A DNA stretch of 64,000 nt, taken from assembly GCA_965224505.1 (NCBI GenBank), contig CBDCZL010000018.1, forward strand, positions 2,963,847 to 3,027,846, in the 5' to 3' direction. The notes beneath the pieces are model-generated. The model made no database searches, was not told the DNA's origin, and was given only the letters and a program-made list of their open reading frames with translations. Positions 5,936 through 29,502 of this stretch are shown in pieces (position 1 is the first letter of the stretch; each line of letters starts with the position of its first letter). This stretch comes from Woeseiaceae bacterium. Lineage in GTDB: Bacteria; Pseudomonadota; Gammaproteobacteria; Steroidobacterales; Woeseiaceae. Both the position numbers and the translations under genes were made by a program.

Positions 5936-5937
5936 CC

Positions 5938-9545: not shown

Positions 9546-9631
9546 GTAACCGGCCATTCTGCACCGTTATTGCGGCACCCAGGACGATTATGTACCCGGT
9601 GCGTGGCGATCTGTCACGCCTTCGACGCTGA

Positions 9632-11188
9632 TCAGTTCTGATCGAGATCCGAGCGCAGCGGATTGTCGGCAAACAGCTCCTTCCATTGCCTCGGCGTCAG
9701 TTCTTCAACCTGGCTGGCCGGGTGTTGAGAGATGCGCTGCAATACGTCAACCAGGTAAGTGTACGGGTTAATACCCTGTAACCGGCAGGTCACCAGCAGG
9801 CTCTGGATGATTCCGACTTGCCTGGCACCGAGTTCCGTCCAGCAGAACAACCAGTTTTTTCTGCCCATGGGGATGGGCCTCAGCGCACGCTCCAGGTGGT
9901 TGGTATCGATCGGAACCTCAGGGTCACCGAGATACACCCTCAGGGCATCGCTTCTGCCCATGGCGTATTTCAATGCCTTGCTCAGAGGATTGCTCGGAAC
10001 CAGGTCATGCCGGGTACATTGTTGCTCGCACCAGGCAAAGAACGCCGCTACCACAGGCTCGCTGTGCTTTGTCCGGTGCCTGAGCTTCGCCTCGCCCTCA
10101 AGGTTTTTCTCGCGGATAGCCTTCTCCTGAGAATACAGCTCACCGATCAGCGCAAGCGCTTGTTCTGCCGCTTCAGGCTCCGCGGCCTTCGCCTTGTCAA
10201 AATAGCGCCTCGTGTGCGCCCAACATTGCGCATGGCTCATCTTCGGCCGCTTACGGGCATAGCTCTCATACGCCTCGTAACCGTCTGTGATCAGGGTTCC
10301 TTCGAAGTTCTCGCCCAACACCTCACGCACCTGCCTTGCGGCCCGTGAGGAGGAGTAGCTGAAGGCGATTTCAGCCGCCTCCCCGTAGATCGGCCAGAAA
10401 TACGCCTGCCGCATCCTGCCCTGTTTCTTGCGACCCGCCTTGATCGGCGTCTCGTCCATGGCGAGCACACGGCTTTTGCGAATGTGTTCGAACTGCGCCA
10501 CATAGACGGGCTCCAGAAGATCGATCGCACGTCTGGCCAGATTCGTCAGTGTCGCCCGCGAAAGCGCGATGCCGCACTGGCCAAGGCGCTGGTGCTGCCG
10601 GTACAAGGGCAGGTGATAGCAGAACTTGTCCACCAGCATGCCGGCCAGGAAGCTCACATCGGCGATGCTCTTCTCCAGCACATTGGCAGGCGCCGGCGTG
10701 CTGATGAGGTCAGCCGTATCCCGCCTTTTGAAGACCGGGCGTACGTACTTCAAAACCACATAGCTGCCCGGCCTTTGCGCCAGCCGAAAGCTAACCTTCT
10801 CCGAGACCCGTTCGAGCTGATCCGGAGTGATAGCATCTTCCAGTTCGGGCTCAAGGTGAATGGTCTCGACCGGCACCGTCTCGTCAAAACGAAGGCCCTG
10901 GTCGTTGACACAGTTGTCCTTACGGGACTTCTTGCGCTCGTAAGTAATCTTCTGCTTTTCTTCTGCCGGCGGACGCGGCGTGACTTCAATGCCCAGACCC
11001 GCCAGAAGATCCGCCTGTACCGCCGGATCGATCTGCAAACGCTTTTCCGAACGCTCACCAAACAGCTGACGCCTGAACCAGTCAAGTTGCGTCGTAAGGC
11101 TTTTAACTTGTTCGGCAAGAGCCGCATTTTCAGCGAGAAGGGCCGCGGTGCTTTGTGTTCCTGTACTCACCGATGGCGCTGAACTCAT
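9632..11188 (-). CDS. tnpC: IS66-family transposase (TnpC)
   Basis: 518 aa. N-terminal leucine-zipper-like region, a central DDE region (VLAMDETPIK..., LITDGYEAY..., CWAHTRRYF) and the typical IS66 C-terminus. Confidence 0.9.
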   Translation of the reverse strand: MSSAPSVSTGTQSTAALLAENAALAEQVKSLTTQLDWFRRQLFGERSEKRLQIDPAVQADLLAGLGIEVTPRPPAEEKQKITYERKKSRKDNCVNDQGLRFDETVPVETIHLEPELEDAITPDQLERVSEKVSFRLAQRPGSYVVLKYVRPVFKRRDTADLISTPAPANVLEKSIADVSFLAGMLVDKFCYHLPLYRQHQRLGQCGIALSRATLTNLARRAIDLLEPVYVAQFEHIRKSRVLAMDETPIKAGRKKQGRMRQAYFWPIYGEAAEIAFSYSSSRAARQVREVLGENFEGTLITDGYEAYESYARKRPKMSHAQCWAHTRRYFDKAKAAEPEAAEQALALIGELYSQEKAIREKNLEGEAKLRHRTKHSEPVVAAFFAWCEQQCTRHDLVPSNPLSKALKYAMGRSDALRVYLGDPEVPIDTNHLERALRPIPMGRKNWLFCWTELGARQVGIIQSLLVTCRLQGINPYTYLVDVLQRISQHPASQVEELTPRQWKELFADNPLRSDLDQN

Positions 11189-11197
11189 GGCGGACGA

Positions 11198-11578
11198 TTA
11201 TAACAAAGCGACCCTCTCGGAGCGATGCTCAGAATGACAATAACGCCTGTGCTGCTTCACCGAACCCACATCGATACCTTCCAGCATGAGTTTCAGTGAC
11301 GTCACGTCCAGCGACAGTTTATCACCGCAGGCATCGTCCTTACGGAAATGAAACCGTCCCTGCTCGAGGCGTTTTGACCAGAGCGCATAACCGGACCGAT
11401 CGAAGTACAGTATCTTCAGGTAGCTCCGCTTGCGGTTGACGAACACGAACAGCTGGCCCGACAGCGGATCTTCTGACAACTGCTGCTTCACCAGCGCTGA
11501 CAAACCGTCGAACGACTTCCTCATATCAGTGGGCTCGGTATACAGCCGGATACGCACCTGGGACTCGGGAAAGAACAT
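11198..11578 (-). CDS. tnpB: IS66 Orf2-like protein (TnpB)
   Basis: 126 aa, with ...RIRLYTEPTDMRKSFDGLSALV...LFVFVNRKRSYLKILYFDRSGYALWSKRLE, typical of IS66 TnpB. ATGA overlap with the upstream ORF. Confidence 0.85.
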   Translation of the reverse strand: MFFPESQVRIRLYTEPTDMRKSFDGLSALVKQQLSEDPLSGQLFVFVNRKRSYLKILYFDRSGYALWSKRLEQGRFHFRKDDACGDKLSLDVTSLKLMLEGIDVGSVKQHRRYCHSEHRSERVALL

Positions 11579-11868
11579 CAGCGCAGCCTCAGCTTCAGGC
11601 CCGAAGGGAGTTCAAGCTCCACCTGCCACCAGGAATCATCCTGCGCGCTGAGCAACGACGTGACATCGAGAAGTGCCGAAGCCTGCGCACTACTCGGTCG
11701 AGCTCTCTCGCCTTTAAGCCGTTTGCGCCAGTAGCCAAAGGTACTGTACGCAACACCGTGCACCTCACAAAACTCACGCTGCGAAAGATCGCCTGCATCG
11801 TAGGCCGCCATCAACTCCAACCAGTCCGCTCGCCTCTTGCGCACGGACTTTCCCGTTACCTCACTCAT
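11578..11868 (-). CDS. tnpA: IS66 Orf1 (TnpA, HTH protein)
   Basis: The probable start is the internal Met (MSEVTGKSVRKRR...). It contains the HTH-like segment SQREFCEVHGVAYSTFGYWRKRL. Confidence 0.75.
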   Translation of the reverse strand: MSEVTGKSVRKRRADWLELMAAYDAGDLSQREFCEVHGVAYSTFGYWRKRLKGERARPSSAQASALLDVTSLLSAQDDSWWQVELELPSGLKLRLR

Positions 11869-11954
11869 CTGATTTGCTCCTGTGTAATCAACGGAGCGGA
11901 AAACGTAACCGGAAATCAAAAATGGGGGAATAACGGCCTACAATGGCCGCTTAC

Positions 11955-11962
11955 GTTCGAAA
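11955..11962. repeat. Target-site duplication GTTCGAAA (right copy)
   Basis: Identical to 9538..9545. Confidence 0.9.
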
Positions 11963-12650: not shown

Positions 12651-12674
12651 GAACAGAATCTGATTGTCCGCTTA

Positions 12675-12783
12675 TGGTAGCGGGGGTTCGCTGCAAACGC
12701 TATCAAGCGCTGGTCACAGCCCTGGATATCGGGACCAGAAACCCGCTATTTTGAACGTCTGACATCGGCCAAAGCGGCTGTTC
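12675..12783 (-). repeat. attC-like repeat, subtype ending CCCCCGCTACCA
   Basis: About 64 nt aligns with 23329..23392 with about 9 mismatches. The 5' box contains the plus-strand GGCCA at 12767. Confidence 0.4.
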
Positions 12784-12837
12784 AATCAACCTTTCGGTTC
12801 TTACCTCGTATCTCCGTTCTCGGCCACAAGCCGCCGT
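12784..12837 (-). repeat. Short attC-like repeat directly after the stop of the LRR gene
   Basis: Minus strand: TGA-ACGGCGGCTTGTGGCCGAGAACGGAGA...AAAGGTTGATTGAAC. The AAC...GTT arms flank a short centre. Confidence 0.4.
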
Positions 12838-13851
12838 TCAGTTCGTCTTGGAATACTCACCAAATCCTTTTTCGTCCAAGGTTTTCCTCGCCCGCTCGTT
12901 CCATTTCTGACTACCTGAATAGATAGCGACTGTTTCCATCGACTTCGGCCAGTTCGCTTCTACGAGGCCGTCCAGATCGAGCTTTGTTCGCGAAGTTCGG
13001 AAGTGCCGAAGGCCTTTCAGGTCAAGCAGCCCATCAAGCCGGTCTAGGCTCTTGCAGTTGTGCAAGGAAACCTCTTCGGGCCTACTTCCAGCAAACGAGA
13101 TGCTCCGAAGCTGTATTTGATCCTCCACATGCAATCGGCGCAGATTCGGAAACCTCGATAGATCGCCGAGATCATTGAAACCCTTGACTCTCAGAACCTC
13201 TAACTCGCTCAAATTAGCGTGTTTAATTTCATCAATGTTTTCTCGGCCACCGAGAATTATTGTTAGCTTGTCTAAGTTCGGTATTTCATTGACGAACTCA
13301 AGCTTCTGCCTTTTCGCAATCGACCCCAAACTGAGCTTGGTGAGATTCTGGAGACGCGAGAGCACCACAATGTTCTTCAGGTGCCCGTTGAGAAAGAACT
13401 CATCTAGGTTGTCGCAAGTCTCCAATGGCGACAGGTCAAAGTTCTTCTTCTTGTTGTCTGACAATACGAGACGAGTTATTCGGGTCAAATCCAGCGTTGC
13501 CAAGAAACGCGGTGCGTCAAAGTGATAAACACCGAAAGAGAACTTCCGAAGATTTGGCATTCGCGCAATCGCGTCTTCGTTCTCGATGTGCATCAAACAA
13601 TCGACCGAAAGCCATTGCGCATCCGGCAGGTGCTTCAGGACAGAAGCGTCAAATGCGCCCGAATAGTGCCCATAGAATCGTACTTCTAGCTTGTCTCCGT
13701 ACTCTGAGCAAAACTGGTTGACTTTCTTCAGTAGACGCGGCGAATAACCGGGCTTCGAGAATTGTACGGTTGGATTGACGCCGCGACCTAGGACTTCGTC
13801 TAAGTGGTCGCGCGAGACCTTCTTGGGGTCTGTGATCCGGTTTTCTAGCAA
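12838..13851 (-). CDS. Leucine-rich-repeat protein (cassette-borne)
   Basis: 337 aa with a TTG start. It has repeated LxxLxLxx(N/C)xL-type units about 22-24 aa long (NLRKFSF, ITRLVLSDN, NLDEFFLNG, NLTKLSLGS, NLDKLTIIL, LSELEVLRV, NLRRLHVED...). No enzymatic domain was recognised. Confidence 0.6.
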   Translation of the reverse strand: MLENRITDPKKVSRDHLDEVLGRGVNPTVQFSKPGYSPRLLKKVNQFCSEYGDKLEVRFYGHYSGAFDASVLKHLPDAQWLSVDCLMHIENEDAIARMPNLRKFSFGVYHFDAPRFLATLDLTRITRLVLSDNKKKNFDLSPLETCDNLDEFFLNGHLKNIVVLSRLQNLTKLSLGSIAKRQKLEFVNEIPNLDKLTIILGGRENIDEIKHANLSELEVLRVKGFNDLGDLSRFPNLRRLHVEDQIQLRSISFAGSRPEEVSLHNCKSLDRLDGLLDLKGLRHFRTSRTKLDLDGLVEANWPKSMETVAIYSGSQKWNERARKTLDEKGFGEYSKTN

Positions 13852-13897
13852 AGTCGTGCCATCTTTGTCCGAGAGAGCGGCTTGGTTTCGAACGACC

Positions 13898-13985
13898 GCA
13901 ACGGGTCAGAGGACGAAACCGCTAACGCGGTAGTTGTCGCAATGATCTGAGTTCATCGAAAAATTAACAGTCAAGGCCTCCCCTG
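13898..13985 (-). repeat. attC-like repeat (3' half clear) upstream of the LRR gene
   Basis: The plus-strand 11-mer GCAACGGGTCA at 13898 is identical to 17190..17200 and differs at one position from 26057..26067. All three lie 26-47 nt upstream of a minus-strand start codon. Confidence 0.3.
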
Positions 13986-14037
13986 TGTTGAGCTTGTGGT
14001 TACCACACGCAGCAAACAACAACACAGGAGAGGACCC

Positions 14038-14928
14038 ATGACCAAGAACAAGTCTATCAGCCCGTTGCGCCGACGACTGCTCGATGACATGCGGATGCGT
14101 AAATTAAAGCCCAAGACCCGGTCCGGCTATCTGCGTGCCGTTATTCGGCTGACGCGCTTTCTGGGCCGTTCACCGGACACCGCAAGTGCTGAGGATCTTC
14201 GGGATTTCCAACTGCACCTGGTCGATGCTGGGGTGACGGCACCGACCCTCAACAGCATGATTACCGCGCTGAAGTTCTTCTACGGCACCACGCTCGGCAC
14301 CCCGGAGGTGGTGGCGCTGATGAGCCCTTTGCCACAGCCCGAGCGCCTGCCGGCGGTATTGAGTGTCGAGGAAGTGGCGGAGCTTCTGGCCTGTGCACCG
14401 AACCTCAAGGCGCAGACGGCCTTGTCGGTGGCCTACGGCGCAGGTCTTCGCAGCTCCGAGGTGGTCAGGCTCAAGACCACCGACATCGACTCCGATCGCA
14501 TGGTGATCCGCATCGACCAGGGCAAGGGGGCGAAAGACCGCACCGCTATGCTGTCGCCGGCCGTCCTGCAGCAACTGAGGACCTGGTACCGCACCGCCCG
14601 GGCCAGGCAGCAGGTACGCCCGGGCAGCTGGCTGTTCCCCGGCCAGGGGGGCAGGCATTTATCGCCCCGGCAGCTCAACCGGCTGTTCCACCAGGCAGCC
14701 GATGCCGCCGGTATCAACAGGCGCGTGTGCCTGCACACCCTCAGGCACTCCTTTGCAACCCATCTGCTGGAGAAGAACACCGACATCCGGGTGATCCAGA
14801 TGCTGCTGGGCCACAAGAAGCTCGAGACCACGGCCCGTTACAGCCATGTGGCCAGCAAGACCCTGCTTAAAGTCGAGGGTCCGCTGGATCGCCTGCCGCT
14901 GGGGGCGAGCCGGCCACAGGCCCGCTGA
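14038..14928 (+). CDS. Tyrosine recombinase / integrase (IS91-associated type)
   Basis: The ATG at 14038 gives MTKNKSISPLRRR.... The catalytic region contains GLRSSEVVRL, HTLRHSFATHLL and LLGHKKLETTARYSHV. Confidence 0.85.
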   Translation: MTKNKSISPLRRRLLDDMRMRKLKPKTRSGYLRAVIRLTRFLGRSPDTASAEDLRDFQLHLVDAGVTAPTLNSMITALKFFYGTTLGTPEVVALMSPLPQPERLPAVLSVEEVAELLACAPNLKAQTALSVAYGAGLRSSEVVRLKTTDIDSDRMVIRIDQGKGAKDRTAMLSPAVLQQLRTWYRTARARQQVRPGSWLFPGQGGRHLSPRQLNRLFHQAADAAGINRRVCLHTLRHSFATHLLEKNTDIRVIQMLLGHKKLETTARYSHVASKTLLKVEGPLDRLPLGASRPQAR

Positions 14929-14950
14929 GAACCTCGCTTCGTAGCTGCGT

Positions 14951-16147
14951 ATGTCGCGGCCTCCTTTGGAGGTCGCCGACATCGTCCGTGCCCGGGGACT
15001 TGAGTATCGGGCCGCCCATCGTGGCCACTTAAGCCTCGGGCAGCTCAAGGTACTGTCGGCGATCGAGCGCTGCCGAACGGCGGAACTCGGCGGCCACAGG
15101 TTGCACTGCAAGCGGTGCGACACGGACACGCTCGCCTATAACTCCTGTCGTAACCGCCATTGCCCCAGGTGCCAGGCCTCGGCCGCCGAACGCTGGCTCA
15201 AGGCACAGGAGGCCAACATCCTGCCGGTGCCGTACTTCCACGTGGTCTTTACCCTGCCCGAAGAGCTTCGTTCTATCGCCTACCAGAACAAGGCACGGGT
15301 CTACGATCTCCTGTTCAAAACGGCATCAAGGACCCTGCTCAGGATCGCCGCCGATAACAAGCACCTCGGGGCCGAGGTGGGCCTCACTGCCGTGCTGCAC
15401 ACCTGGGGATCGTCGCTCACCCATCATCCGCACCTGCACTGCATCGTCACCGGTGGCGGCTTGAGTGAGGACGGCAGATGCTGGATCCGATCACGGCCCA
15501 ACTTCCTGGTGCCCGTCAAGGTGCTGGCCCGGCTGTTCCGGCGCTACTTCCTCGAGGCGCTCATCAAGGCACACGGCAAAGGCGACCTCCGGTTCTTCGG
15601 CAAACTCGATCATCTCAACGACACCGATAACTTCGCTGGCAACCTAGATCCGCTCAGGAAGATCGACTGGGTGGTCTATGCCAAGCGGCCCTTCGCAGGC
15701 CCTGAGGCCGTGCTCACCTACCTGTCCCGGTACACCCACCGCATCGCCATCGCCAACCGCAGGCTGGTCGCCTTCGACGAGCGGGGGGTCACGTTCCGTT
15801 ACAAGGACTACCGCAGCAAAAAAGCCAATCCCTGGAAATCCATGACGCTGAACACCGACGAGTTCCTGCGCCGCTTCCTGCTGCATGTCCTGCCACCGGG
15901 CTTTCATCGCATCCGCCATTACGGCCTGCTGGCCAATGCCAGGCGACAACACAAACTGAAGATCGCCAGAACCTTGCTGCGGTGCCAGGCCAAAGATGAG
16001 AGGGAGCCTGCGGATCTAAAGGACAAGGAGGCTCAGGAACAATCGCCGACCTTCACCTGCCGACACTGCGGTGAACCGCTCATCGTCGTCGAGATCCTTG
16101 TGCCCCAGAATAATGCCCGGGCGCCCCCGCAACGGCATGCCGCATGA
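14951..16147 (+). CDS. IS91-family (rolling-circle, HUH/Y2) transposase
   Basis: N-terminal zinc-binding region CKRCDTDTLAYNSCRNRHCPRCQ, the HUH-like motif HTWGSSLTHHPHLHCIV, and a Tyr motif YLSRYTHRIAI. Confidence 0.85.
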   Translation: MSRPPLEVADIVRARGLEYRAAHRGHLSLGQLKVLSAIERCRTAELGGHRLHCKRCDTDTLAYNSCRNRHCPRCQASAAERWLKAQEANILPVPYFHVVFTLPEELRSIAYQNKARVYDLLFKTASRTLLRIAADNKHLGAEVGLTAVLHTWGSSLTHHPHLHCIVTGGGLSEDGRCWIRSRPNFLVPVKVLARLFRRYFLEALIKAHGKGDLRFFGKLDHLNDTDNFAGNLDPLRKIDWVVYAKRPFAGPEAVLTYLSRYTHRIAIANRRLVAFDERGVTFRYKDYRSKKANPWKSMTLNTDEFLRRFLLHVLPPGFHRIRHYGLLANARRQHKLKIARTLLRCQAKDEREPADLKDKEAQEQSPTFTCRHCGEPLIVVEILVPQNNARAPPQRHAA

Positions 16148-16516
16148 ACCGATACAAACGAAACCCGATGATCAAAATGAGCGCCGTCAACTTACGGCGG
16201 CAACGGGCTGCTTGCGGCTTGTCTCACCGACGGAAAAGATCGGGTCGCTTGCCGCGACTACCAACGCAAAAAATACACCGGCCGAGCGACGATTATCAGA
16301 ACGTCGGCATTGAATATCCCGCTATCAAATACGAAAAGATGCAGACCCTGGACCCGGCACTACGATCAAATCCCCATAGCCCGAAACATCATCGCACCCA
16401 GACCATTCAACGCTGCGGTTTCCTCCCCTGGGTCTTGTCCGTCGCCTGCTCCTGATACGACGACATCACCGACCACACCACCGAGCGCGCCTCCGATCCG
16501 CATCACCGCGTACGCA

Positions 16517-16702
16517 GGCAACTGACAACACTTAACAACAGCGGAGATTGTAACGCATTCCAGGCCACTGGCAGCTTTGTTATGCATAGGAGTCGTTCGA
16601 AGGCCTACCCAGCAAAATCCGATTTTGGAATTCCGCGTTTTTTGAAAGCGGTCGTCAGATCGCCGCCGTGGAAAACTTCGCTTCTCGGCCAAAACCAGCC
16701 GG
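16517..16702 (-). repeat. attC-like cassette-boundary repeat
   Basis: Minus strand: TGA-CCGGCTGGTTTTGGCCGAGAAGCGAAG ... GAATGCGTTACAATCTCCGCTGTTGTTAAGTGTTGTCAGTTGCC. The plus-strand 19-mer at 16542..16560 matches 26072..26090 with 2 mismatches. Confidence 0.45.
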
Positions 16703-17161
16703 TCACTTCGCAAGTTTCCTAAGCACTTCGAGCACATCTGGGCGAGATTGACGCTGGCTTTTTATGCCGATACTGGCAAGGTCCAACTCGCACGAAACCC
16801 AACTTAAATCTGCCCGAAATGGAGAATTGACATCGAGGTATCCCTCGATCTTGAAAACGACTCCCTCTAGATCATCAAAGCTAAGACGATCATCTTCAAT
16901 TCGCCGCAAGACCTCCGCCACCAGTAGCCGGAAATCGTCATCACTGGGTTTGTCTTGCACTAGGTCCAAGCGATCAAGTCGAGCAAGACCTGCTTCGTCT
17001 CCTAAAGAAATAGTCGTCAAAAAATACGGAGGATTCGGCAGTGTCCGGATCATCTCATCGGCCCATGCCACTAGTTCTTCTTGGGAAAGTAAACCGACCT
17101 TCGCAGCGAATAGATTGGCTCTCGCCAGCTCTCGAATTTCCGATTCGGTCGGATTCTCCAC
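16703..17161 (-). CDS. Acidic hypothetical protein (cassette-borne)
   Basis: 152 aa with a GTG start. It is flanked on both sides by attC-like repeats, and no family was recognised. Confidence 0.5.
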   Translation of the reverse strand: MENPTESEIRELARANLFAAKVGLLSQEELVAWADEMIRTLPNPPYFLTTISLGDEAGLARLDRLDLVQDKPSDDDFRLLVAEVLRRIEDDRLSFDDLEGVVFKIEGYLDVNSPFRADLSWVSCELDLASIGIKSQRQSRPDVLEVLRKLAK

Positions 17162-17189
17162 AGCACATCCTTGATCTATTCGAGTGGCT

Positions 17190-17300
17190 GCAACGGGTCA
17201 CGAACCGTAGTTCGGTAAAAGAAAAATCATACCATTTGAATGGTCGGTTTTCGCTGTTTAGCCGCCGTTGGAGCGGCAATTATCGGCCCTCAAGAATTCT
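17190..17300 (-). repeat. attC-like repeat
   Basis: The 3' box is GCAACGGGTCA (plus strand, 17190..17200). The 5' part AACGGCGGCT (minus strand) is shared with 12784..12837. Confidence 0.35.
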
Positions 17301-17311
17301 GGGAGCTATTT

Positions 17312-17938
17312 GTGTTTCGAAACAAGAAAGAGCCGGAAGAACGTATTCCCTGGAACAAGGGAAAGCTTATCGGGCAAAAAGTGCCGTTTACAAGGCAGGA
17401 AATCTGGGCCATCCGGATGCGTCTGCAGACGATCGGACATCGTCGGGATCTCGCGCTGTTTAACCTGGCGATCGACAGCAAGCTCCGAGGCTGTGACTTG
17501 GTCCGACTGCGTGTATCCGATGTTGCCAGCGGTGGCGAGATACTGTCCCGCGCCACTGTTCGACAGCGCAAAACGAAGCGGCCCGTTCGATTCGAGATCA
17601 CGGAGCGGACCCGAAAGTCTATCGAAGAATGGATTACCGCCGCGCAGCTAGCGGATAGCGATTACCTGTTTCCGAGTCGAGTGAAGCGCTCGCCATACCT
17701 GTCGACACGGCAATATGCGCGCATCGTTAATGACTGGGTACGGGCTATTGGCCTGGACCCGAGCGCGTATGGAACGCACTCACTGCGACGAACCAAGGCG
17801 ACGTTGATCTATCGCCGCACGAAAAATCTCCGAGCCGTCCAGCTGTTGCTCGGGCACACCAATCTCGATAGCACTGTGCGCTACCTAGGTATCGAGATTG
17901 ATGACGCCCTGGAGATGTCCGAGCAGATCGACGTGTGA
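17312..17938 (+). CDS. Short tyrosine recombinase / integrase
   Basis: ORF 17240..17938, with a probable GTG start at 17312 just beyond the repeat. Motifs: LRGCDLVRLRVSDV, THSLRRTKATLIY and LLGHTNLDSTVRYLG. Confidence 0.75.
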   Translation: MFRNKKEPEERIPWNKGKLIGQKVPFTRQEIWAIRMRLQTIGHRRDLALFNLAIDSKLRGCDLVRLRVSDVASGGEILSRATVRQRKTKRPVRFEITERTRKSIEEWITAAQLADSDYLFPSRVKRSPYLSTRQYARIVNDWVRAIGLDPSAYGTHSLRRTKATLIYRRTKNLRAVQLLLGHTNLDSTVRYLGIEIDDALEMSEQIDV

Positions 17939-18498
17939 ATCGAGTCGAGCGCCCTCCGCGGCGCTCGGCTTGATGAGCCGTCCTGGCAGGTGGTTGATCG
18001 AATGCGCGTCATTGCTGGGCCCCTTGGGCACAGTAATGACGCGCGGCGCCAGCCCCGAAACCACGCCGCATGTCGTCACGATTTTCCGACGACAGGCGAA
18101 TGACGCCGCCGTAATCTGCACCGACTGAATTGAGAGCGCGCCGTCCGCTATACGACGGCAACCGTGCTGGCCAGGGCTCGATCTACAGCACCGGGGACGT
18201 TTCCCTGAGAGCCCATCTTCAACGCAGGTGGTTGCACTGCATGTTACTCAAAGGAGGTAAACACATTGGCAATCGTCATTTTCGCTCCCTCCGGGAGCAA
18301 AGCTGGAGCGCACCGATCCAGATCTGATTCATCAGAGAACCGGTGTGGCCTGTGACCAGGCCCTGTTCAGGTCATGTGGGAGTGGTGTCCCAGGATCGAT
18401 ACTCATCCTCTAGCGGATGTCCTTGTTTGACTCCGGTCGGCAAGTGATCAGAAACACTCACCGAACATGAAAATGAACCCAAGTGAGGTCCAACACCA

Positions 18499-19365
18499 GT
18501 GAGACGCCTGAACTACCAGCTGAAACAACTGTGTAAGAACAACCGGGATGGGAGCTACGGCACCCAGGTGCAACGCGAGCGCGTACTGACGCTGATTGCC
18601 AATCAGCTCCACGACCTGGGCTTTCGACGCATGTACGCGAGGTCCTTGCGTCCGAAGCACGTCGAGGCCCTGGTGAAGCACTGGTTAGAGACCAGGGCCG
18701 CTGTCGGCACCATCAAGAACCGCATGACGGCCATACGTTGGTGGGCCGCCAAGGTCGGTAAGCAAAATGCGGTGGCACGCTCAAACGATCACTATGGGAT
18801 ACCGCGCCGGCAATACGCGAACGGCGCTAACCGTGCGATCGACTTGGACAAGCACAAGCTCGCCCTCATCAGCGACCCATACGTGAGGATGAGCCTCGAG
18901 CTGCAGCGCGTGTTCGGTCTCCGGCGAGAGGAAGCCATCAAGATCCGTCCGGTTGTCGCCGACAAAGGGGATGTTCTTTGGCTCAAGCCCAGCTGGACGA
19001 AGGGCGGCCGGGCTCGCGAGATCCCGATCCGCATCGAGGCGCAACGGGCAGTCCTGGACCAAGCCAGGTCACTTGCCGGTAAGGGCTCGCTCATCCCCGC
19101 CGAGAAGACCTACAAGCAGCAGAAGAACCGCTACGAGGGGCTATGTATTCGCGCAAGCCTTTGCAAGATGCATGGCCTCAGGCACGCCTATGCGCAACAG
19201 CGTTTTGAGGAAATCACAGGCTTCCCGGCGCCCCTCGCAGGAGGTCCAAATCGTGCTGACCTCACGATTGATCAGCGCGCGCTCGACCAGAAAGCGCGCG
19301 CCGTAATCTCCGCAGAGCTCGGGCACGAACGCGAGCAGATCACCGTGACTTACCTGGGGCGATGA
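18499..19365 (+). CDS. Integrase-domain protein (tyrosine recombinase with an N-terminal SAM-like domain)
   Basis: 288 aa. Motifs: GLRREEAIKIRP, HGLRHAYAQQRF and ELGHEREQITVTYLGR. Confidence 0.7.
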   Translation: MRRLNYQLKQLCKNNRDGSYGTQVQRERVLTLIANQLHDLGFRRMYARSLRPKHVEALVKHWLETRAAVGTIKNRMTAIRWWAAKVGKQNAVARSNDHYGIPRRQYANGANRAIDLDKHKLALISDPYVRMSLELQRVFGLRREEAIKIRPVVADKGDVLWLKPSWTKGGRAREIPIRIEAQRAVLDQARSLAGKGSLIPAEKTYKQQKNRYEGLCIRASLCKMHGLRHAYAQQRFEEITGFPAPLAGGPNRADLTIDQRALDQKARAVISAELGHEREQITVTYLGR

Positions 19366-19561
19366 GCAGCGGCCGATCAACATCACCTCGAGTCTCCAGA
19401 AGCACATATTTGGAGCCTGCCCCACAACGGGGTAATAATCGGCGGAGTGCGTCCGAAGGGGACAAGCCCGACCGACGGATCGTAGCGCTTGTCAAACTGC
19501 TAGCCCGGCTCGCGGCGGAACAGGATTTCCAAGACGAGCCGAATGAACGGTAACGATACAC

Positions 19562-21205
19562 ATGAGCGAAACAAAGGGTCGACGCGTAGCCATCTACGCC
19601 CGTTACTCGAGCGATCTCCAAAGCGATTCCTCTGTCGAAGATCAGATCCGCCTCTGCAGCGAATTCGCTGAATCCAAGACCTGGAACCTTGCAGGCCAGT
19701 ACTGCGACGCCGGGCTTTCCGGTGCTTCGTTGATGCGACCCGGAATCCAGCAGCTGATTACCGACGCGCTGGCGGGCGAGTTTGACGTCGTATTAGCCGA
19801 AGCACTCGACCGCATTTCGCGGGACCAGGAAGACATTGCCGGCGTCTACAAGCGAATGGAATTCGCTGGCGTTGAGATCGTCACACTCTCTGAAGGCCCG
19901 ATCTCCTCCCTGCACATTGGCCTGAAAGGCACGATGAATGCCTTGTTCCTGAAGGACCTCGCCGACAAGACACGGCGGGGACTGCGCGGCCGAGTGGAAC
20001 GCGGCAAATCGGGCGGCGGAATCGCTTACGGCTATGAGGTTGTTAAGCGATTCGATCTGGAGGGAAATCCCTTGCGAGGCGACCGGTCCATCAACGAGGA
20101 CCAGGCACAGATCGTGCGGCGAATTTTCGAGGATTACTCGCGCAACCTGTCGCCGAGAGCCATCGCGTCACAACTGAACTCAGAGGGCGTACCCTCACCG
20201 TCGGGTAAGACCTGGTCGCAGTCCGCGATTAACGGCAATAGACGACGCGGTACAGGCATTTTGAACAACGAACTCTACATTGGGAATCTGGTTTGGAACC
20301 GCCAGCGGTTCATCAAAGATCCGGATTCGGGCAAGCGCGTTACCCGGCTCAACGACGAGAGCGAGTGGATCATTCAGGAGGTTCCTGAGCTGCGCATCGT
20401 CCCTCAAGAATTGTGGGACGAAGCAAAGGCGCGTCAAAAAGAACTCGATACCAGGAAACCCGGCTTGTGGCGACGAAACCGACCTCGCTACCTGCTATCG
20501 GGTCTCATCAAGTGCGGCGAATGCGGGGGCGGATATTCGAAGATCAACACCACCCATTACGGTTGCTCGGCAACCAGGAACAAAGGTGAAAGCGTTTGCA
20601 CAAACCGTAAGACGATGGCTAAGAACCAACTGGAGGGAGCGGTTCTCAAGGCTTTACAGACCCACCTGTTGCGAGACGATCTTGTTGAAACTTTCTGCCA
20701 GGAGTACGCGCAACATTTGAACGAGCTCAGGAAGGCCCAACATGCGGCTAAACGCGCAAAACAAGCTGAGCTCCGTCAATTGAAGAAAAGGCAGGAGCAA
20801 GTCATACAGTCGATCTACAACGGCGTCGACGCGAGAATGATCAAGGACGAGTCCAGGTACATCGCCGACCGGATGGAGGAGCTGGAAGCTGAAGAAGCTC
20901 AGCAGCAAGAGCAACCGCCACCCAAACCGCTGGTACACCCGGCGATGGCAGACCGCTATCGAGAGGAAGTAGAGAACCTGAGAGAGGCGCTTAATCGCAA
21001 GAATGCGCAAGCTGAAGCATCAGAGCACCTGCGTGCGCTCATCGGGAAGATAGTGCTCACACCGGAACCGGGGCGAGAAGATCTGCGCATCGATCTGCAC
21101 GGAGACCTGGCCGGAATCCTACAAATAGCCAGCCAAAAACAAGCTCGGCCCGGAAACGAAACCATTTCCGGGCCGAACAAGATAGCGTTGGTAGCGGGGG
21201 CGTGA
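19562..21205 (+). CDS. Large serine recombinase
   Basis: N-terminal resolvase motif VAIYARYSSDLQ...EDQ...SRD, a recombinase domain, the zinc ribbon CGECGGGYSKINTTHYGCSATRNKGESVC, and a coiled-coil tail. The last codons (LVAGA-stop) lie inside the attC-like repeat at 21189..21293. Confidence 0.9.
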   Translation: MSETKGRRVAIYARYSSDLQSDSSVEDQIRLCSEFAESKTWNLAGQYCDAGLSGASLMRPGIQQLITDALAGEFDVVLAEALDRISRDQEDIAGVYKRMEFAGVEIVTLSEGPISSLHIGLKGTMNALFLKDLADKTRRGLRGRVERGKSGGGIAYGYEVVKRFDLEGNPLRGDRSINEDQAQIVRRIFEDYSRNLSPRAIASQLNSEGVPSPSGKTWSQSAINGNRRRGTGILNNELYIGNLVWNRQRFIKDPDSGKRVTRLNDESEWIIQEVPELRIVPQELWDEAKARQKELDTRKPGLWRRNRPRYLLSGLIKCGECGGGYSKINTTHYGCSATRNKGESVCTNRKTMAKNQLEGAVLKALQTHLLRDDLVETFCQEYAQHLNELRKAQHAAKRAKQAELRQLKKRQEQVIQSIYNGVDARMIKDESRYIADRMEELEAEEAQQQEQPPPKPLVHPAMADRYREEVENLREALNRKNAQAEASEHLRALIGKIVLTPEPGREDLRIDLHGDLAGILQIASQKQARPGNETISGPNKIALVAGA

Positions 21206-21293
21206 TTTGCCCTGTTCCGACAGCTCGAAAGCGAGTCCGTTTGAAGTAGCTCAGGTCTCCAAGCTGGCTTCGCCCGGGCCAAATGCCCGCTTC
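21189..21293 (-). repeat. attC-like repeat, subtype ending CCCCCGCTACCA
   Basis: Minus strand: TAA-GAAGCGGGCATTTGGCCCGGGCGAAGCC ... CACGCCCCCGCTACCAAC. The plus-strand TGGTAGCGGGGG at 21189..21200 is identical to 12675..12686 and 23329..23340. Confidence 0.4.
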
Positions 21294-23329: not shown

Positions 23330-23422
23330 CTTTTTGTTTGGTAGCGGGGGTTGGCTGCCAACGCTATCAAGCACTGGTCACAGCGATGGATATTCTTACC
23401 AGCCGGCCACACTCAAAGACGC
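23329..23422 (-). repeat. attC-like repeat, subtype ending CCCCCGCTACCA, after the higA stop
   Basis: It aligns with 12675..12740. The plus-strand GGCCA box is at 23405. Confidence 0.4.
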
Positions 23423-24268: not shown

Positions 24269-26031
24269 TCAGAACTCAGGAGGGGGCACAATGATCTCCC
24301 GACCATGGACTTGCTCACCACGCATGAACTTGCGGATGATGTCCGAGACTTCCGGAGAAATCATGAACAAGTTGTGGCCGCCGTTTATAACGGTGACGAG
24401 TTGCCGGTTTTCCAGTTTCGATACTGCTTCTCGTTGGCTGTCAAAATATGTGCGCCCGTCCAGCGTCCCACTTATTAGCAACACGGGAACATCAGAGACG
24501 GGATTTTCCCGGAATGCATCGCCTAGATCGTACGACGGTGCGACATCAGCAAGGTAAATCGTGTCATTCAGAAATTGGCCTAGCAGAGACGATTTCGCCT
24601 GCTGGTCGATGAGCGCCCGGCGGGCAAAACTAACGCCGGAGGCAATATCCATCATCACCGGCATAAGTTTGAATGAAATAGCGGCGCTGGTGGGCCGTGC
24701 GGTAAATTCGGTGACTTTCAGTCGCATCACAACGCCCTTGGGCAAGGCGAGCGAGCGCAGGACTGGCCGTCGCCAATTCAAGCGAGCTCAACGCCGCCGA
24801 AGGGCGTTGTGGTGCGACCCACCGGGAGCCCTTCTCAAGGGGCATACCGGTGTTGAAGTGGCTTGACATAGCCCGGCTATGCCGGCACCGCTTCGCCTGG
24901 GTCTGCCCCTTGAGAAGGACTCTGAAAGTGACCGAATTTACCGCACGGCCCACTAGGTTTGTCCCACCGCCTTAGAAACCCCGCTAGAGGCTCAGTTTGC
25001 CCTTTTTCCAACGCTACATAGATATGTACCAAATCTGCTGCAAATCGATTCGGGTCGGCAATCATCGCTGCTGCGAACCTCTGCATGCCGCGGCGCTGAA
25101 AAACCACTTTGACAGTCTCCCTGTCTTCTTGCGGTATCTCTAGCTCGAGCGGCGACTCCCCAAGTCGGGCATGTACGCGGCGCATTACTGCTTTGATGTC
25201 GAGTGACGCTGCTCCCTCACTCGATTGGGAGTAAATCGCTTCTTGTAGTCGGCCGAAATACTCATCAGTACGCGTTGGCAGCTTAATGGTCTGATCGAGC
25301 CCTTCGGCGCTGGCGATGATGACTCGATCAATGTGATCGTTCATTTGCTTGATTGCCGCAAGCGCAAGGTGTGATCCGTAGGAGATTCCCCAAAGGGACA
25401 GTTTCTCCGCACCAAGGTGGCGACGCAGGGCATCCAGATCCGCGGCATTTTCCTGCGTGTTGTAGCCGCCAAAGTCGATGCCTTGGTCTTGCCAGTAGGC
25501 TATGCACTCCTTGAGCGCGCTCTTCTGCAATTCGACGAACGACTCGTCTGTTGTTTCAGAAGAATCCACGGCATGCTTGGATGAAGTACAAAGTGGCGTG
25601 TCGTCTGAAGCACCTGTCCCCCGTTGGTCGAGCGCGATTACATCACCGAACTCGCGAAGCGCCATAAACAGCGGGAAACGCCAACTGCCTGCGAACCAGA
25701 TTCCCGACCCGCCTGGGCCGCCCGCTAGATAGACAATCGGTGGCCCCGAATCGGGATCCGTTGCTGGAAATCGCAAGTAATGCAGCGTCAGCATCCTGCT
25801 GCCCGGTTCAGACCGGTTTTCGGGAACTTCGAACGTACCCCGGTATGCTTCGACGACCTCGCCGGATTGTGACTCGAACGCAATGCTGACTTCGTTCGTT
25901 TCAGTCGCGGCTGGTAACGAATCCGATGGTGAGCAAGCGGAGAGGGGCGTCAGTGCTGCAATTGACACGATCTGGGCCAGGAGAAATACGACATTGCGGC
26001 TTTTGCGATGCGTCACATCAAGATTGGTCAA
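24269..26031 (-). pseudogene. Alpha/beta hydrolase (S33-like aminopeptidase/esterase) split by a MITE
   Basis: The N-terminal fragment 24877..26031 has YLAGGPGGSG and the nucleophile elbow GISYGS. The C-terminal fragment 24269..24781 has ...LISGTLDGRT...INGGHNLF. Removing 24691..24952 plus one 4-bp flank joins ...RRWDKP to SAAISFKLMP... in frame, giving about 498 aa. Confidence 0.8.
24691..24952 (+). mobile_element. 262-bp MITE, copy 1
   Basis: Terminal inverted repeats of about 33 nt (TGGGCCGTGCGGTAAATTCGGTSACTTTCAG...). Flanks are CTGG on the left and CTAG on the right. There is no coding capacity beyond a spurious ORF. Confidence 0.85.
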
Positions 26032-26056: not shown

Positions 26057-26173
26057 GCAATGGGTCATCAACGGAGATTGTAGCGCAATCGTAATGACGG
26101 GCAGGAATGCCGATCGAAGCCGTCATTCGGTCCGACAGCAAGTTTGTCTCCGCAGTCGGCCAGAACCGGCCGG
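26057..26173 (-). repeat. attC-like cassette-boundary repeat (best-preserved copy)
   Basis: Minus strand: TGA-CCGGCCGGTTCTGGCCGACTGCGGAGA...(central stem AATGACGG/CCGTCATT)...TCTCCGTTGATGACCCATTGC. The outer arms pair at 12 of 15 positions when G-U pairs are counted. Confidence 0.5.
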
Positions 26174-26869
26174 TCACTCGTCAGTCGACAACACCGAATC
26201 CGACAAGACCCTAGCGGCGACCGGATCAACGTCCAAAATACGGACTGATCCTTCTCGACTATAGAGTAGTAAATGTGACGTTTCGCTCACATAGAAATAG
26301 TCGAATAGCCCTCCAACTGATTCCGTGAGTACATTGATCGTCTTGCCATTAGTTGACACTAAGATCATCTGCGCCTCGCGAGAATCTTCGGCCTCGGAGT
26401 CAGAGTTTGTCACCAACATCACAATTCCAGTAACAACTCGATCGCGGGTGCGCTCCGGATCGGCATCATCTTCCGAATACCGATACAAAAACTGATGATC
26501 GACGATTTCATTGGCCGAATCCTCGAAAAGCCAATGTGCTTTGCGTGATTCAATGTCAAAAAATAGCCAGTTTCGGGCGTTTCCGCGCCCGGAGCCTGAG
26601 CCACCAAATTTTGCCGGGCTCGCCAAGGTTGCGTACAAGAAATCCGTACCTTCAAGACGACGGAATCCGCCTAGCGACAGGTCATCGGCGGCAATATCTT
26701 CTCCGGCAACGTCGGCTAACTGGTCTCTCGGTCTGTCGTTGCCGCCGAACAGTCCAGATTCGATAATCAATGCCAAGAGCGCGACCAAGCTCACGAGAGC
26801 GATAACCAGGACAACAACGCCATTTATTCGCCATACCCATGTGAAAAATTTGTCTGTCTTGCTAGTCAT
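26174..26869 (-). CDS. Membrane-anchored hypothetical protein (cassette-borne)
   Basis: 231 aa with a single N-terminal TM helix (VVVLVIALVSLVALLALIIESGLF). No family was recognised. Confidence 0.5.
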   Translation of the reverse strand: MTSKTDKFFTWVWRINGVVVLVIALVSLVALLALIIESGLFGGNDRPRDQLADVAGEDIAADDLSLGGFRRLEGTDFLYATLASPAKFGGSGSGRGNARNWLFFDIESRKAHWLFEDSANEIVDHQFLYRYSEDDADPERTRDRVVTGIVMLVTNSDSEAEDSREAQMILVSTNGKTINVLTESVGGLFDYFYVSETSHLLLYSREGSVRILDVDPVAARVLSDSVLSTDE

Positions 26870-27270
26870 GATTGGAGGTCTACTAACGCTCCCTTGTTAG
26901 TTCTTCGGTGTATTCCTGAACGGCTGCTGTGTCAAAGTCAGAAGTTTACCTCAACTCGAAAACCGCCGTTCGAACGTCGGATAACCACAGAAAACCAGAC
27001 CGTTCTGGCACCAAAATACAGTCTCCAACAACAAGACGCGCGAAAAAACGCGCCCAGGCTGCCAGGTCACGATTCTGCGCGTGTCGTCGACACTCATGGA
27101 ACAGGTCTCATCGGCCTGCCAGTTGCGTTTCAACAAGGTTTTCCTGCGTTCGCTGATCACGCGCCTGCAGGGCAGCGGCGGCGCCAATACATAGGCACTT
27201 CCAGACCCGGTCTAAGACATCTGGTTGTTTGTGTTGTACGCTACCCGCAATCGTACGGTGGGTAGTGAAC

Positions 27271-28431
27271 ATGACATTCGGTCGGCTGGTCCTGTTATCC
27301 ATTCTGGCCCTGATCCTTGTGACCGGAGTGGCGCATGCTTCGGATGCCAGGAAACTGAATCAGGCGATAGCCGACTTTAAGAAGGCGATGGCAGAAGGAT
27401 CCGTCGTCGCGCAGCTGAGCGCGGCCCAAAGGTCGTTCGACCTCGGCGAAGATTATTTCGAAAAGTCGGACCCACGGCGCATCACCCTGTCAATGAATCT
27501 CGCCGTGCTGCTCGCGAATACCATGCAAGTTGATGCTGCGCGTCTTCAGTTAGAGAAAACATTGAAGATTGGGGAGGACGTCTACGGCAAGCATTCAGTC
27601 GCATTGGTTCCAATGCTTGAAAAGCTCGTGGAAATCAGCGACCCATTTTCGGATAGCAGGCGCCAGCGCAAGTATCTGGATCGAATTATCCAATTGAACA
27701 GCCGTACCTACGGCAAAGAGAGCGCGGAGTACGCGTCGTCGCTCGAATACGCGGCGAGAGAGATGAAAAGTCCGCTACTGCGCAGGCAGAAGGAGAGCTA
27801 TTTCAAGAAAGCGCTCAAAGCGCGGACCGATTTCGCAGGGCATGTCGACATAATGGCAGCGCGTACTGCGCAAGAGCTGGGACGGGAGTATAAGGCCTGG
27901 CGAAAGCGCGATTGGGCAATATCCGCCTACGAAACGGCGCTGGAGGGTTTTGAGAATTCCGAGGACACGACGGATTCAGAGTTGCTCGCGGTACACAGGG
28001 AATTATTCGAGCTGCTGTCGAGCACCGGCAGGACGAAACGAGCCGATCAACATCTGGCGAAACTTAAGGAGCTGCGTAACACAAGCGGTGCTCAAAAGCC
28101 GTTGCGGATCTGGTCTCCGGAAATAGTGTGGCCCCCTGGTGTGGATTACTCAGAGCACGCAATCTGGGTACGAGTCAGGTTCACCGTCGATGAGAACGGC
28201 AATGTATCGGAACCTGTCGTGGATGGCAGCGGCGTGGAAGAGACGTCCCCCGTCCCCGGAACGCACGCTCACTTCAGGGCGCCACCTTTGGACAGCGAGA
28301 TGCGTAAGTTCGAGATTGAAGCCAGAAAGTACGTGCAGCGCTGTCGATACTTGCCAGCAACAGTCGATGGGACTGAAGTGGCATCGGAAGAGGTGGTGCA
28401 AACGGTCCTTTTCGCCAAGGTGGCGAGTTAA
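27271..28431 (+). CDS. TPR-like repeat protein with a TonB-C-like C-terminal domain
   Basis: ORF 27229..28431, with a probable start MTFGRLVLLSILALILVTGVAHA (signal). Helical repeats are followed by a C-terminal segment, WPPGVDYSEHAIWVRVRFTVDENGNVSEPVV, resembling TonB C-terminal domains. Confidence 0.5.
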   Translation: MTFGRLVLLSILALILVTGVAHASDARKLNQAIADFKKAMAEGSVVAQLSAAQRSFDLGEDYFEKSDPRRITLSMNLAVLLANTMQVDAARLQLEKTLKIGEDVYGKHSVALVPMLEKLVEISDPFSDSRRQRKYLDRIIQLNSRTYGKESAEYASSLEYAAREMKSPLLRRQKESYFKKALKARTDFAGHVDIMAARTAQELGREYKAWRKRDWAISAYETALEGFENSEDTTDSELLAVHRELFELLSSTGRTKRADQHLAKLKELRNTSGAQKPLRIWSPEIVWPPGVDYSEHAIWVRVRFTVDENGNVSEPVVDGSGVEETSPVPGTHAHFRAPPLDSEMRKFEIEARKYVQRCRYLPATVDGTEVASEEVVQTVLFAKVAS

Positions 28432-28646
28432 CGGCAAGGATCGCCTCTATAGTCTTCCTGCGCCACTGATCAAGGGTCAGCCCTAAACCGGGTGGCTGGG
28501 CACTGACGGTTCTCGGAATCTATCCGATTTCGGCCTCGAGAGCACTAATGGGGTGTTTGTCCAACGAGCGTCGATATTGAGGCAGCAATCGTCGGTCACG
28601 ACGTGAATCGAACTGCCGCATCGGAGTTGGAATACCCATGTGCCAG

Positions 28647-29462
28647 TTATGCCTTGCTCCTGCCGCCGTCAACGATAATTTCCTGTCCGGTAATCATAGA
28701 CGATGAATCGGAGGCCAGAAAAAGCGTAGGCCCGGCAATATGCCACCCGTTCAGTTTCTCGCCGATGCACTGTTCAGAGAGACACGTCTTCAGGTCTTCG
28801 TCGTTTGCCCAGAGCTCGACCTGTTTGCTGGTCAACACCCAGCCGGGAGTCAATACATTGGCGCGGATCAGAAAGGGGCCCAGCTCTCGAGCAAGAGCCC
28901 GAGTCAGGCCAACGATTCCGCCTTTGCTCGCTACGTACGCGGGATAGCCTCCAAGACCAAGGTTAAAAGAGTTCGAACCCATATTAATAATGCTACCGCC
29001 TCCCGCTTTTTTCATACCGTCCAATGCAAATTGCACGGTGAAAAAATGCGGCCGGAGGTTGGTCGCCATACTGTCGTCCCACTGTTCATCGGAAAACTGA
29101 TCGACCGTATGCCGAGTGTCTCTCGCTGCGTTATTGATCAGCACATCGATCGCGCCGGTCGCCTTTACGAAATCGTCTATTGTGTGTCGCAACTTATCAA
29201 GCTCGCGGATATCACACTGAGCCGCCGTCGGGCGGACTCCCGTTTGAGTCTCGATCTCCTTCACCAGCCTCTCTGCGGACTCCTTGTGCAGAGAAACGAA
29301 GCCCACCTGGCACCCCTGGGCTGCAAATGCTGCGGTTAGAAAAGCGCCGATACCGGATCCGCCGCCGGTGATAAAGACGCGCTTCCCCTGCAGGTCGGGG
29401 TAAGTCGGAAGCGCCTCCATACCGGGCACGTCGTAAACGTCGTCGTAAAAAAAGTTGGTCAT
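28647..29462 (-). CDS. SDR-family oxidoreductase (candidate sugar 1-dehydrogenase)
   Basis: Motifs TGGGSGIG, NNAA and YVASK. It is divergent from the dehydratase operon. Confidence 0.85.
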   Translation of the reverse strand: MTNFFYDDVYDVPGMEALPTYPDLQGKRVFITGGGSGIGAFLTAAFAAQGCQVGFVSLHKESAERLVKEIETQTGVRPTAAQCDIRELDKLRHTIDDFVKATGAIDVLINNAARDTRHTVDQFSDEQWDDSMATNLRPHFFTVQFALDGMKKAGGGSIINMGSNSFNLGLGGYPAYVASKGGIVGLTRALARELGPFLIRANVLTPGWVLTSKQVELWANDEDLKTCLSEQCIGEKLNGWHIAGPTLFLASDSSSMITGQEIIVDGGRSKA

Positions 29463-29502
29463 TCGTCCTTATTCACTTGCGCAACAATGTCAAAACTGTA
29501 TT

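Follow-up and report, generated by a model that had tools for sequence, protein, structure and literature searches.

In a 64,000-nt stretch of DNA from a Woeseiaceae bacterium (the window), positions 12675-21200 probably constitute an integrative mobilizable element (IME), a small island that carries out its own integration and relies on the conjugation machinery of another element for transfer. It comprises a serine integrase specific for tRNA-Met, what is probably a relaxase of the MOB_M type, and a structured element without an Rfam match. A preliminary description had singled out 17300-21200 as a cassette slot filled by three recombinase genes. The three plus-strand genes are present where that description placed them, and all three have Pfam matches: a small tyrosine recombinase (17312-17938), a 288-aa tyrosine-recombinase-fold protein (18499-19365), and a large serine recombinase (LSR; 19562-21205). 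As a unit, the segment did not hold up. It is only the tRNA-proximal, right-hand 4 kb of the element spanning 12675-21200, and may act as the maintenance and transfer end of the IME.

A serine recombinase island at the 3′ end of tRNA-Met

Window positions 12672-21209 are duplicated at ~99% identity on the same chromosome, at C18:714214-722851. The boundaries of both copies carry the 12-mer TGGTAGCGGGGG, the reverse complement of CCCCCGCTACCA, which is the 3′ end of a tRNA acceptor plus CCA. This 12-mer occurs exactly three times in the window (12675, 21189, and 23339) and in two further places in the whole genome. In the sister copy, a tRNA-Met(CAT) gene located just downstream of nuoL, nuoM, and nuoN has the right-hand 12-mer as its 3′ end, and the left-hand 12-mer comes after the terminator hairpin of the tRNA itself. 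The duplication and the tRNA-Met junction of the sister copy together define the unit as an island of ~8.5 kb, bounded by 12-nt direct repeats and integrated in the 3′ end of tRNA-Met. In the window, identity with the sister copy begins at the distal direct repeat (12675-12686, plus strand), which marks the left island boundary and is followed by an arm that we designate P′ (TTCGCTGCAAACGCTATCAAGC..., 12687-12740, plus strand). The right boundary (21150-21209, plus strand) consists of the P arm (CCGGGCCGAACAAGATAGCGT), the proximal direct repeat (21189-21200), and nine further nucleotides that resemble the tRNA. The sister copy thus shows the tRNA 3′ end, adjoining integrase, and distal repeat expected of a tRNA-targeting island. 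The tRNA side of this arrangement recurs in six other Woeseiaceae assemblies and in the alphaproteobacterium Kordiimonas; at the window copy, the repeats are present, but a tRNA-like fragment of 21 nt stands in place of the tRNA gene.

The LSR gene encodes a 547-aa protein whose last codons cross the attachment site. Pfam matches to Resolvase, Recombinase, and Zn_ribbon_recom cover the domains of an LSR, the catalytic serine lies in an N terminus that reads VAIYARYSSDLQ, and the best NCBIfam matches are CcrB and XisF. The stop codon (21203-21205) is located just past the proximal 12-mer and inside the 21-nt tRNA-like stretch (21189-21209), which bears out the earlier remark that this gene ends within a repeat. 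Orthologues with 79-95% identity end inside tRNA-Met in the six other Woeseiaceae assemblies, and the arm CCGGGCCGAACAAGATAGCGT preceding the junction is identical in all Woeseiaceae loci. A 50%-identical orthologue from Kordiimonas ends in the end of its own tRNA-Met, TGGTTGCGGGAG.

A second Kordiimonas contig provided an attP-type junction. There, the end of the LSR gene is joined to CCCGCAACCAACGCTA, resulting in TAGCGTTGGTTGCGGG-AG-CCCGCAACCAACGCTA, a perfect 16-nt inverted repeat (16/16) around the dinucleotide AG. We reconstructed the corresponding site of the window by joining 21150-21200 to 12687-12740, and obtained ATAGCGTTGGTAGCGGG-GG-TTCGCTGCAAACGCTAT, in which 13 of 17 positions are symmetric around GG. 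An imperfect dyad around a central dinucleotide and a short identity between attP and attB are characteristic of LSR attachment sites; the repeat here is 12 nt long, compared with 45-50 nt in islets that carry a tyrosine integrase. The dyad symmetry of the joined ends places the crossover at positions 11-12 of TGGTAGCGGGGG. Conserved linkage and attP symmetry identify the LSR, as judged from these genomic comparisons, as the integrase of the island and the 3′ end of tRNA-Met(CAT) as its target.

In the mechanism we propose, the LSR would recombine attP, formed by the joined island ends, with the 3′ end of tRNA-Met(CAT), and the left half-site of attP would mimic the tRNA end and restore the tRNA after integration. 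Because the island brings its own copy of the last 10-12 bases of the tRNA, the tRNA stays intact, and that copy is the 12-nt direct repeat. The reading frame of the LSR crosses the crossover point, and its C terminus therefore differs with integration state: the predicted product has 547 aa for the window copy, 556 aa where the island adjoins the tRNA, and 568 aa for the circular form. A C terminus that reports integration state might serve regulation. A conserved open reading frame (ORF) of 63 codons (19362-19553, plus strand), which is open and 57% identical in another species, separates the 288-aa gene from the LSR gene. It has no Pfam match, and is a candidate accessory or directionality factor.

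The junction to the right of the window copy differs from that of its sister. The nine bases to the right of the 12-mer are tRNA-like, bringing the agreement with the 3′ end of tRNA-Met to 19 of 21 nt. We considered a decayed tRNA gene to the right of 21200 and rejected it, as similarity past 21 nt was at chance level. The third 12-mer of the window is followed by an arm resembling P′ (23339-23402, plus strand; 86% identical to 12675-12738), and we conclude that it is the distal end of a further, related island remnant. Tandem accretion is seen in one relative (G008), where three 12-mers stand in a row downstream of tRNA-Met and degenerate LSR genes end at two of them. The window copy may accordingly be part of an accreted or relocated island array away from a tRNA gene, or may have arisen by secondary-site integration into a leftover att fragment. 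Contig C7 of the same relative (L022 5406-8566) also contains a 3.1-kb segment with a P-like arm at tRNA-Met and a P′-like arm at the next 12-mer but without a gene for a serine recombinase. This segment could be a nonautonomous element that uses the integrase in trans, or a deletion derivative.

A relaxase-like protein and a structured element upstream of its gene

The second protein of the island, of 288 aa (18499-19365, plus strand), matches Phage_int_SAM_2 and Integrase_1 (PF12834 and PF12835), and is most likely a tyrosine-recombinase-type relaxase akin to MpsA and the MOB_M class. This reading builds on the PF12835 signature, constant pairing with integrases, a coupling-protein context on plasmids, and the MOB_M literature. 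PF12835 has been used as the signature of MpsA, the atypical relaxase of SGI1 (PMC10484663); MpsA, MpsB, and the SGI1 origin of transfer (oriT) have been described (PMC6414798). Tyrosine-recombinase-like relaxases of the MOB_M class are reported to be common in chromosomes; 96% have an integrase nearby, and "integrase" is often their own annotation too (bioRxiv 10.64898/2026.01.13.699239; PMC8152469). The protein atlas likewise names members of the 288-aa family only "integrase," and a PDB sequence search returned only noise.

The family is very large and of near-constant length. Its R/K/HxxR/H/Y signature is invariant in 18 sequences (GLRREE, WTKGG, HGLRH, ELGH, and YLGR), so that the 288-aa protein has the tyrosine recombinase fold, catalytic residues, and nucleophilic tyrosine of a MOB_M relaxase. 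The association of MOB_M proteins with transfer functions or with the integrase of a mobilizable island is found as well. In all 18 island loci examined, namely those with flanking DNA, the gene adjoins an integrase gene. Homologues with 45-55% identity are located on plasmids of 4-10 kb, and on two of these, pSIO1 and a Pleionea plasmid, a gene for a type IV coupling protein directly follows the homologue. A majority of the plasmids with a homologue (159 of 256) are typed as nonmobilizable.

The genomic setting of the gene in Woeseiaceae is modular. Islets of 5-9 kb that carry it are integrated at tRNA-Arg, tRNA-Phe, tRNA-Val, and tRNA-Pro, and also at tRNA-Arg genes adjoining tRNA-Ser. Their order is constant: the 288-aa gene, an overlapping ORF of ~80-125 codons, a tyrosine integrase of 350-380 aa, and the tRNA. 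The overlapping ORF has no Pfam match; its translation looks Xis/AlpA-like. These islets are bounded by 45-50-nt repeats, whereas the tRNA-Met islands have the LSR as terminal integrase and a 12-nt repeat. That integrases are swapped at different tRNAs implies that the terminal enzyme sets the target and that the 288-aa protein is the target-independent constant. Woeseiaceae, which are abundant marine-sediment bacteria, thus carry a modular family of tRNA islets in which the PF12835 "integrase" stays constant while its partner may be either a tyrosine or a serine integrase. Such a family is in keeping with a recent claim of a large class of relaxases, similar to tyrosine recombinases, that has been overlooked beside integrases. 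In the mechanism proposed here, the 288-aa relaxase would nick an oriT near its own gene.

The sequence between the two tyrosine recombinase genes had been regarded as decayed. Instead, positions 18248-18486 (plus strand) form a conserved structured element, a candidate RNA of ~230 nt with at least seven helices, directly upstream of and sense to the 288-aa gene. Approximately 300 nt upstream of this gene are conserved as DNA across all islets, even where protein identity drops to ~55%. Single-sequence folds agree on at least seven helices, the sequences of which vary between loci. A covariance model of the element (R1) gave one sense-strand match upstream of each 288-aa homologue in the searched loci, with one exception, a locus that R1 matched weakly with filters off. 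It found no match in the searched Kordiimonas, Rhizobium, and G008 loci, all of which are without the 288-aa gene. This genome has five matches, and a further match precedes a 288-aa ORF in another gammaproteobacterial family. Matches in two unpublished genomes, G066 and G261, were set aside and support none of the claims made here. All 28 matches of R1 are directly upstream of and sense to a 288-aa gene. Two further copies of the element, at G000:C18:348019-348239 and C17:577267-577487, are not followed by an intact 288-aa gene; both are near copies of an IS91-type insertion sequence, and are probably remnants of related islets.

Covariation statistics were calculated from an alignment of 28 sequences and 41 pairs, with controls in which sequences were shuffled or pairing partners were slid. 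Cells forming a standard pair made up 92.2% of the observed alignment and 76.6% of the shuffled one, and 28 of the 41 pairs had changes on both sides, compared with a shuffled mean of 19.9. The covariation score was 0.402, as opposed to 0.071 or less with partners slid. Pairing was higher on the sense strand (92.2%) than on the antisense strand (85.4%), and one G-U pair was invariant. No Rfam family matched the element, nor was there any Rfam match elsewhere in the window. GC-rich inverted repeats lie just 5′ of the element. A leader peptide behind a conserved AAAGGAGGT block was considered and discarded because indels do not come in threes.

SGI1 encodes an RNA, sgm-sRNA, between oriT and mpsA that is required for mobilization (PMC9299015). 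The position and strand of the structured element fit sgm-sRNA, and its fold is backed by covariation. It is most likely a sense-strand RNA and a positional analogue of sgm-sRNA, and may serve mobilization as sgm-sRNA does in SGI1. A different account, to which we give a minor share of the probability, is that the element is the oriT itself, folding as the transferred single strand, or a cis-regulatory 5′ leader of the 288-aa mRNA, rather than a separate RNA. Its position in all 28 matches, immediately 5′ of the gene and in the same sense, would suit either function; the oriT of MpsA and MobK systems adjoins the relaxase gene and is rich in inverted repeats (PMC6414798, PMC8152469), and GC-rich inverted repeats are present just 5′ of the element. 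In SGI1, however, oriT and the core of the sRNA are separable neighbors (PMC9299015, section 2.6), and a ~230-nt branched fold in which one G-U pair never varies is more characteristic of an RNA. An oriT or leader would affect this one part, and leave the reading of the island unchanged.

Tentatively, and with somewhat less than even confidence, we propose that the element is a functional RNA partner of relaxases with PF12834 and PF12835, such that the sRNA of SGI1 would be one member of a widespread, structurally conserved class that relaxosomes need. If so, an RNA-dependent system for initiating DNA transfer would be common in marine-sediment Gammaproteobacteria. As a covariation-supported motif without an Rfam match that accompanies 288-aa genes, the element would make the RNA requirement of SGI1 testable in a second, distant system.

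Several results weigh against the IME reading and its parts. No tRNA gene was found in the window, which leaves the window copy without the adjoining tRNA of its sister. No empty site, the check proposed in the preliminary description, was found in the relatives tried, where the window flanks and the segment 21206-23345 are not conserved. R1 did not match the plasmid loci that encode homologues of the 288-aa protein, and a promoter scan returned no sigma-70-like promoter near the element. No NCBIfam model matches the 288-aa protein; the relaxase assignment draws on a Pfam signature, gene context, and published work, with PF12835 as the link to MpsA, and a genuine site-specific recombinase would be just as consistent with the full catalytic signature. 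The Woeseiaceae islets are without genes for a coupling protein or a mating pore, and a helper element was not identified.

Some of these results favor a true site-specific recombinase, which might resolve multimers or tandem arrays or help the terminal integrase in excision. Its substrate would be a conserved DNA site upstream of the gene that encodes it, and the hairpins would be inverted-repeat binding sites in DNA rather than RNA. Besides the complete tyrosine recombinase signature, the 288-aa protein has a SAM-like domain for DNA binding at its N terminus. Recombinases that serve in resolution are frequent on small plasmids, the tandem arrays of islands would have to be resolved, and the promoter scan offered nothing for an RNA. 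It is hard, however, to explain by double-stranded, protein-binding palindromes that seven helices keep pairing through double changes, that 99 cells are G-U, and that pairing is stronger on the sense strand. The homologues in an operon with a coupling protein on two plasmids, and the published status of PF12835 as the MpsA signature (PMC10484663), also speak for a relaxase. We therefore regard a dedicated recombinase as unlikely, and prefer the relaxase reading.

Cargo, insertion sequences, and the cassette interpretation

The third recombinase, a small tyrosine recombinase of ~208 aa (17312-17938, plus strand; Phage_integrase, 1.6e-21 for the ORF 17240-17938), consists of the catalytic domain only. 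Its start was placed at 17312 rather than 17240 because its relatives are 208-212 aa long, and its R, HxxR, H, and Y residues align with those of the XerC-like protein 4a8e. Homologues of 208-212 aa in seven other genomes are located away from 288-aa and LSR genes; this genome and its nearest relative are the exceptions. A diverged third copy of the gene in this genome is separated from the structured element by an extra ORF of 227 aa. Terminal inverted repeats around the gene were considered and dropped, as the 74-nt arms seen at one locus are locus-specific. By its distribution, the 208-aa recombinase appears to be a separate, independent passenger module.

Left of these genes, the island carries an IS91-family insertion sequence of 2629 bp (13909-16537, plus strand), composed of a tyrosine recombinase gene (13996-14928) and a Y2 transposase gene (14951-16147), with Pfam matches to Y2_Tnp (4e-66), Zn_Tnp_IS91, and Phage_integrase (1e-40). 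The genome has at least six copies at >99% identity. The four full copies are all inserted after GG(C/T)CA (GGYCA) without target duplication, as is characteristic of the IS91 family. A motif, TGACCGGCYGGTTYTGGCCGA (minus strand), lies on the stop codons of unrelated genes at 12817-12845, 16682-16710, and 26153-26178 of the window and at approximately nine other sites in the genome, and the IS91-type element inserts at its core. Two copies of the motif (16710-16536, continued at 13908-13898, and 26178-26055) extend to a unit of ~125-190 nt ending in ACAATCTCCGYTGWTGACCCRTTGC.

The island also contains a cargo gene on the minus strand (12838-13851) for a 337-aa leucine-rich-repeat protein with weak LRR Pfam matches, present in both island copies, and a variable segment (16692-17180, minus strand) with a 152-aa ORF (16703-17161) that has no match elsewhere in the genome. 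The two copies differ in the position of the insertion sequence and in this one gene-sized segment, which in the sister copy is replaced by a UPF0167 gene (C18:718234-718822; L001 10235-10823). The swap is precise, between TTCTCGGCCA and GGCTGnnnnGGGTCACGAACC, and its flanks look like imperfect inverted copies of one motif of ~17 nt. Single-nucleotide differences are clustered at 17185-17299 and 19197-19311. The latter cluster, 115 bp within the 288-aa gene, holds 16 of the 29 differences between the copies, and on its pattern resembles a gene-conversion patch from another copy.

The exchange of one gene-sized segment between otherwise ~99% identical island copies, together with minus-strand cargo genes spaced by short motifs that recur (TGACCGGCYGGTTYTGGCCGA marks three gene ends in the window and has ~12 sites genome-wide), lends some appeal to the view that the region is a slot of a cassette array in which the three recombinases stand in for IntI and move cassettes between repeats. 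The repeats on which this view was based dissolved on inspection. A single family had been proposed to cover 17190-17300, 13898-13985, and 21189-21293. The five alleged repeats align at a mean column identity of 45%; those at 13898 and 17190 have only the 11-mer GCAACGGGTCA in common, near the chance level (4 matches with at most one mismatch against 1.7 expected, with 9 of 100 shuffles reaching 4). Positions 13909-13985 are the left end of the multicopy insertion sequence, and 21189-21293 has only 12-21 nt in common with the other two copies. The geometry thought to be repeated in the neighboring slot is explained by the IS91-type unit inserting at the core of the gene-end motif. The boundaries of the supposed array are att-type direct repeats derived from the 3′ end of tRNA-Met, with no attC-like sites: inspection of the boundary sequences revealed no inverse core sites of the attC type (RYYYAAC ... 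GTTRRRY).

Nor does an integron integrase gene with attI adjoin the region. The sole match above the TIGR02249 cut-off (388 bits) is a true IntI gene at G000:C18:3116251-3117186, ~88 kb to the right of the window end, and self-BLAST detected no array of short, attC-like repeats beside it. The preliminary description had offered two explanations. That mobile elements target the repeats came closest to the truth, although the 12-mers are attachment-site duplications of the tRNA-Met 3′ end and not cassette boundaries. That the recombinases replace IntI on the repeats is opposed by boundaries that are direct 12-mers equal to CCCCCGCTACCA, by a serine recombinase that adjoins tRNA-Met in Kordiimonas and in each of the Woeseiaceae assemblies examined, and by the separate distributions of the three recombinases: the 288-aa protein occurs with other integrases at other tRNAs, and the 208-aa protein without the other two. 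A cassette array is thus largely refuted and very improbable, and we reject the integron-like interpretation. What appeared to be a cassette array without an integrase becomes ordinary mobile-element biology, namely the att repeats of a tRNA-Met-specific serine recombinase island and the target sites of an insertion sequence.

The surroundings of the island are also populated by mobile elements. An IS66-family element (TnpA/TnpB/TnpC) occupies 9546-11957 and has at least six identical copies in the genome. Farther left (4995-9549), a TniQ-like fragment is followed by a gene pair encoding an AAA ATPase and an S8 subtilase, in a region generally rich in mobile and defense-type genes. A 270-nt element resembling a miniature inverted-repeat transposable element, with 35-nt terminal inverted repeats and >80 copies in the genome, is found at 24687-24956, 50191-50460, and 59303-59577; one copy splits an alpha/beta-hydrolase gene. 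A 24-kb contig ends (C16:18605-24004) with a 99% copy of window positions 26933-29707 behind a copy of IS91; this reflects either a duplication or an assembly that mixes strains.

Comparison with known mobile elements

The island most resembles SGI1-type IMEs (PMC6414798, PMC9299015). Both are small chromosomal islands with an integrase at one end, a tyrosine-recombinase-fold protein bearing the PF12835 signature, and a structured noncoding element directly upstream in the same sense; the likeness of protein and RNA is one of signature and position. SGI1 differs in having a tyrosine integrase that targets trmE, where this island has an LSR at tRNA-Met, and in that MpsA needs a separate MpsB, whereas a DNA-binding N-domain is fused in the 288-aa protein. 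No genes of the SGI1 traN/G/H type are present here, and the hosts are environmental Woeseiaceae. TcpM, MobK, and MpsA of the MOB_M class (PMC8152469; bioRxiv 10.64898/2026.01.13.699239) likewise have the tyrosine recombinase fold with the catalytic pentad and tyrosine, are routinely annotated as integrases, usually lie beside a real integrase in chromosomes, and occur on small plasmids typed as nonmobilizable. Pfam matches and context suggest that the 288-aa protein belongs to this class.

Several recombinase genes in a row at one end of an island are also found in RIT, GInt, SE, and Tn554 elements (PMC5385486, PMC10214605). These differ in being fixed tyrosine recombinase operons with a catalytically dead Tfp/GinC or a TnpC/Srap partner. 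Membership in RIT, GInt, or SE was rejected: here a serine recombinase is among the three, each gene has a distribution of its own, and no gene resembling Tfp, GinC, or Srap accompanies them. Integron cassette arrays share co-oriented cargo genes spaced by short recurring sequences, but attC inverse cores were not seen here, the boundaries are tRNA-derived direct repeats, and the distant IntI is not associated with the region.

Phage-type integrative elements with an LSR have the same Resolvase/Recombinase/Zn-ribbon architecture, a dyad attP around a central dinucleotide, and the recombinase gene at the element edge. Compared with other LSR elements, this island targets a tRNA gene at its 3′ end and mimics 10-12 nt of the tRNA in one attP half-site, and the integrase frame crosses the crossover, so that the C terminus differs among the circular, tRNA-integrated, and secondary-site forms.

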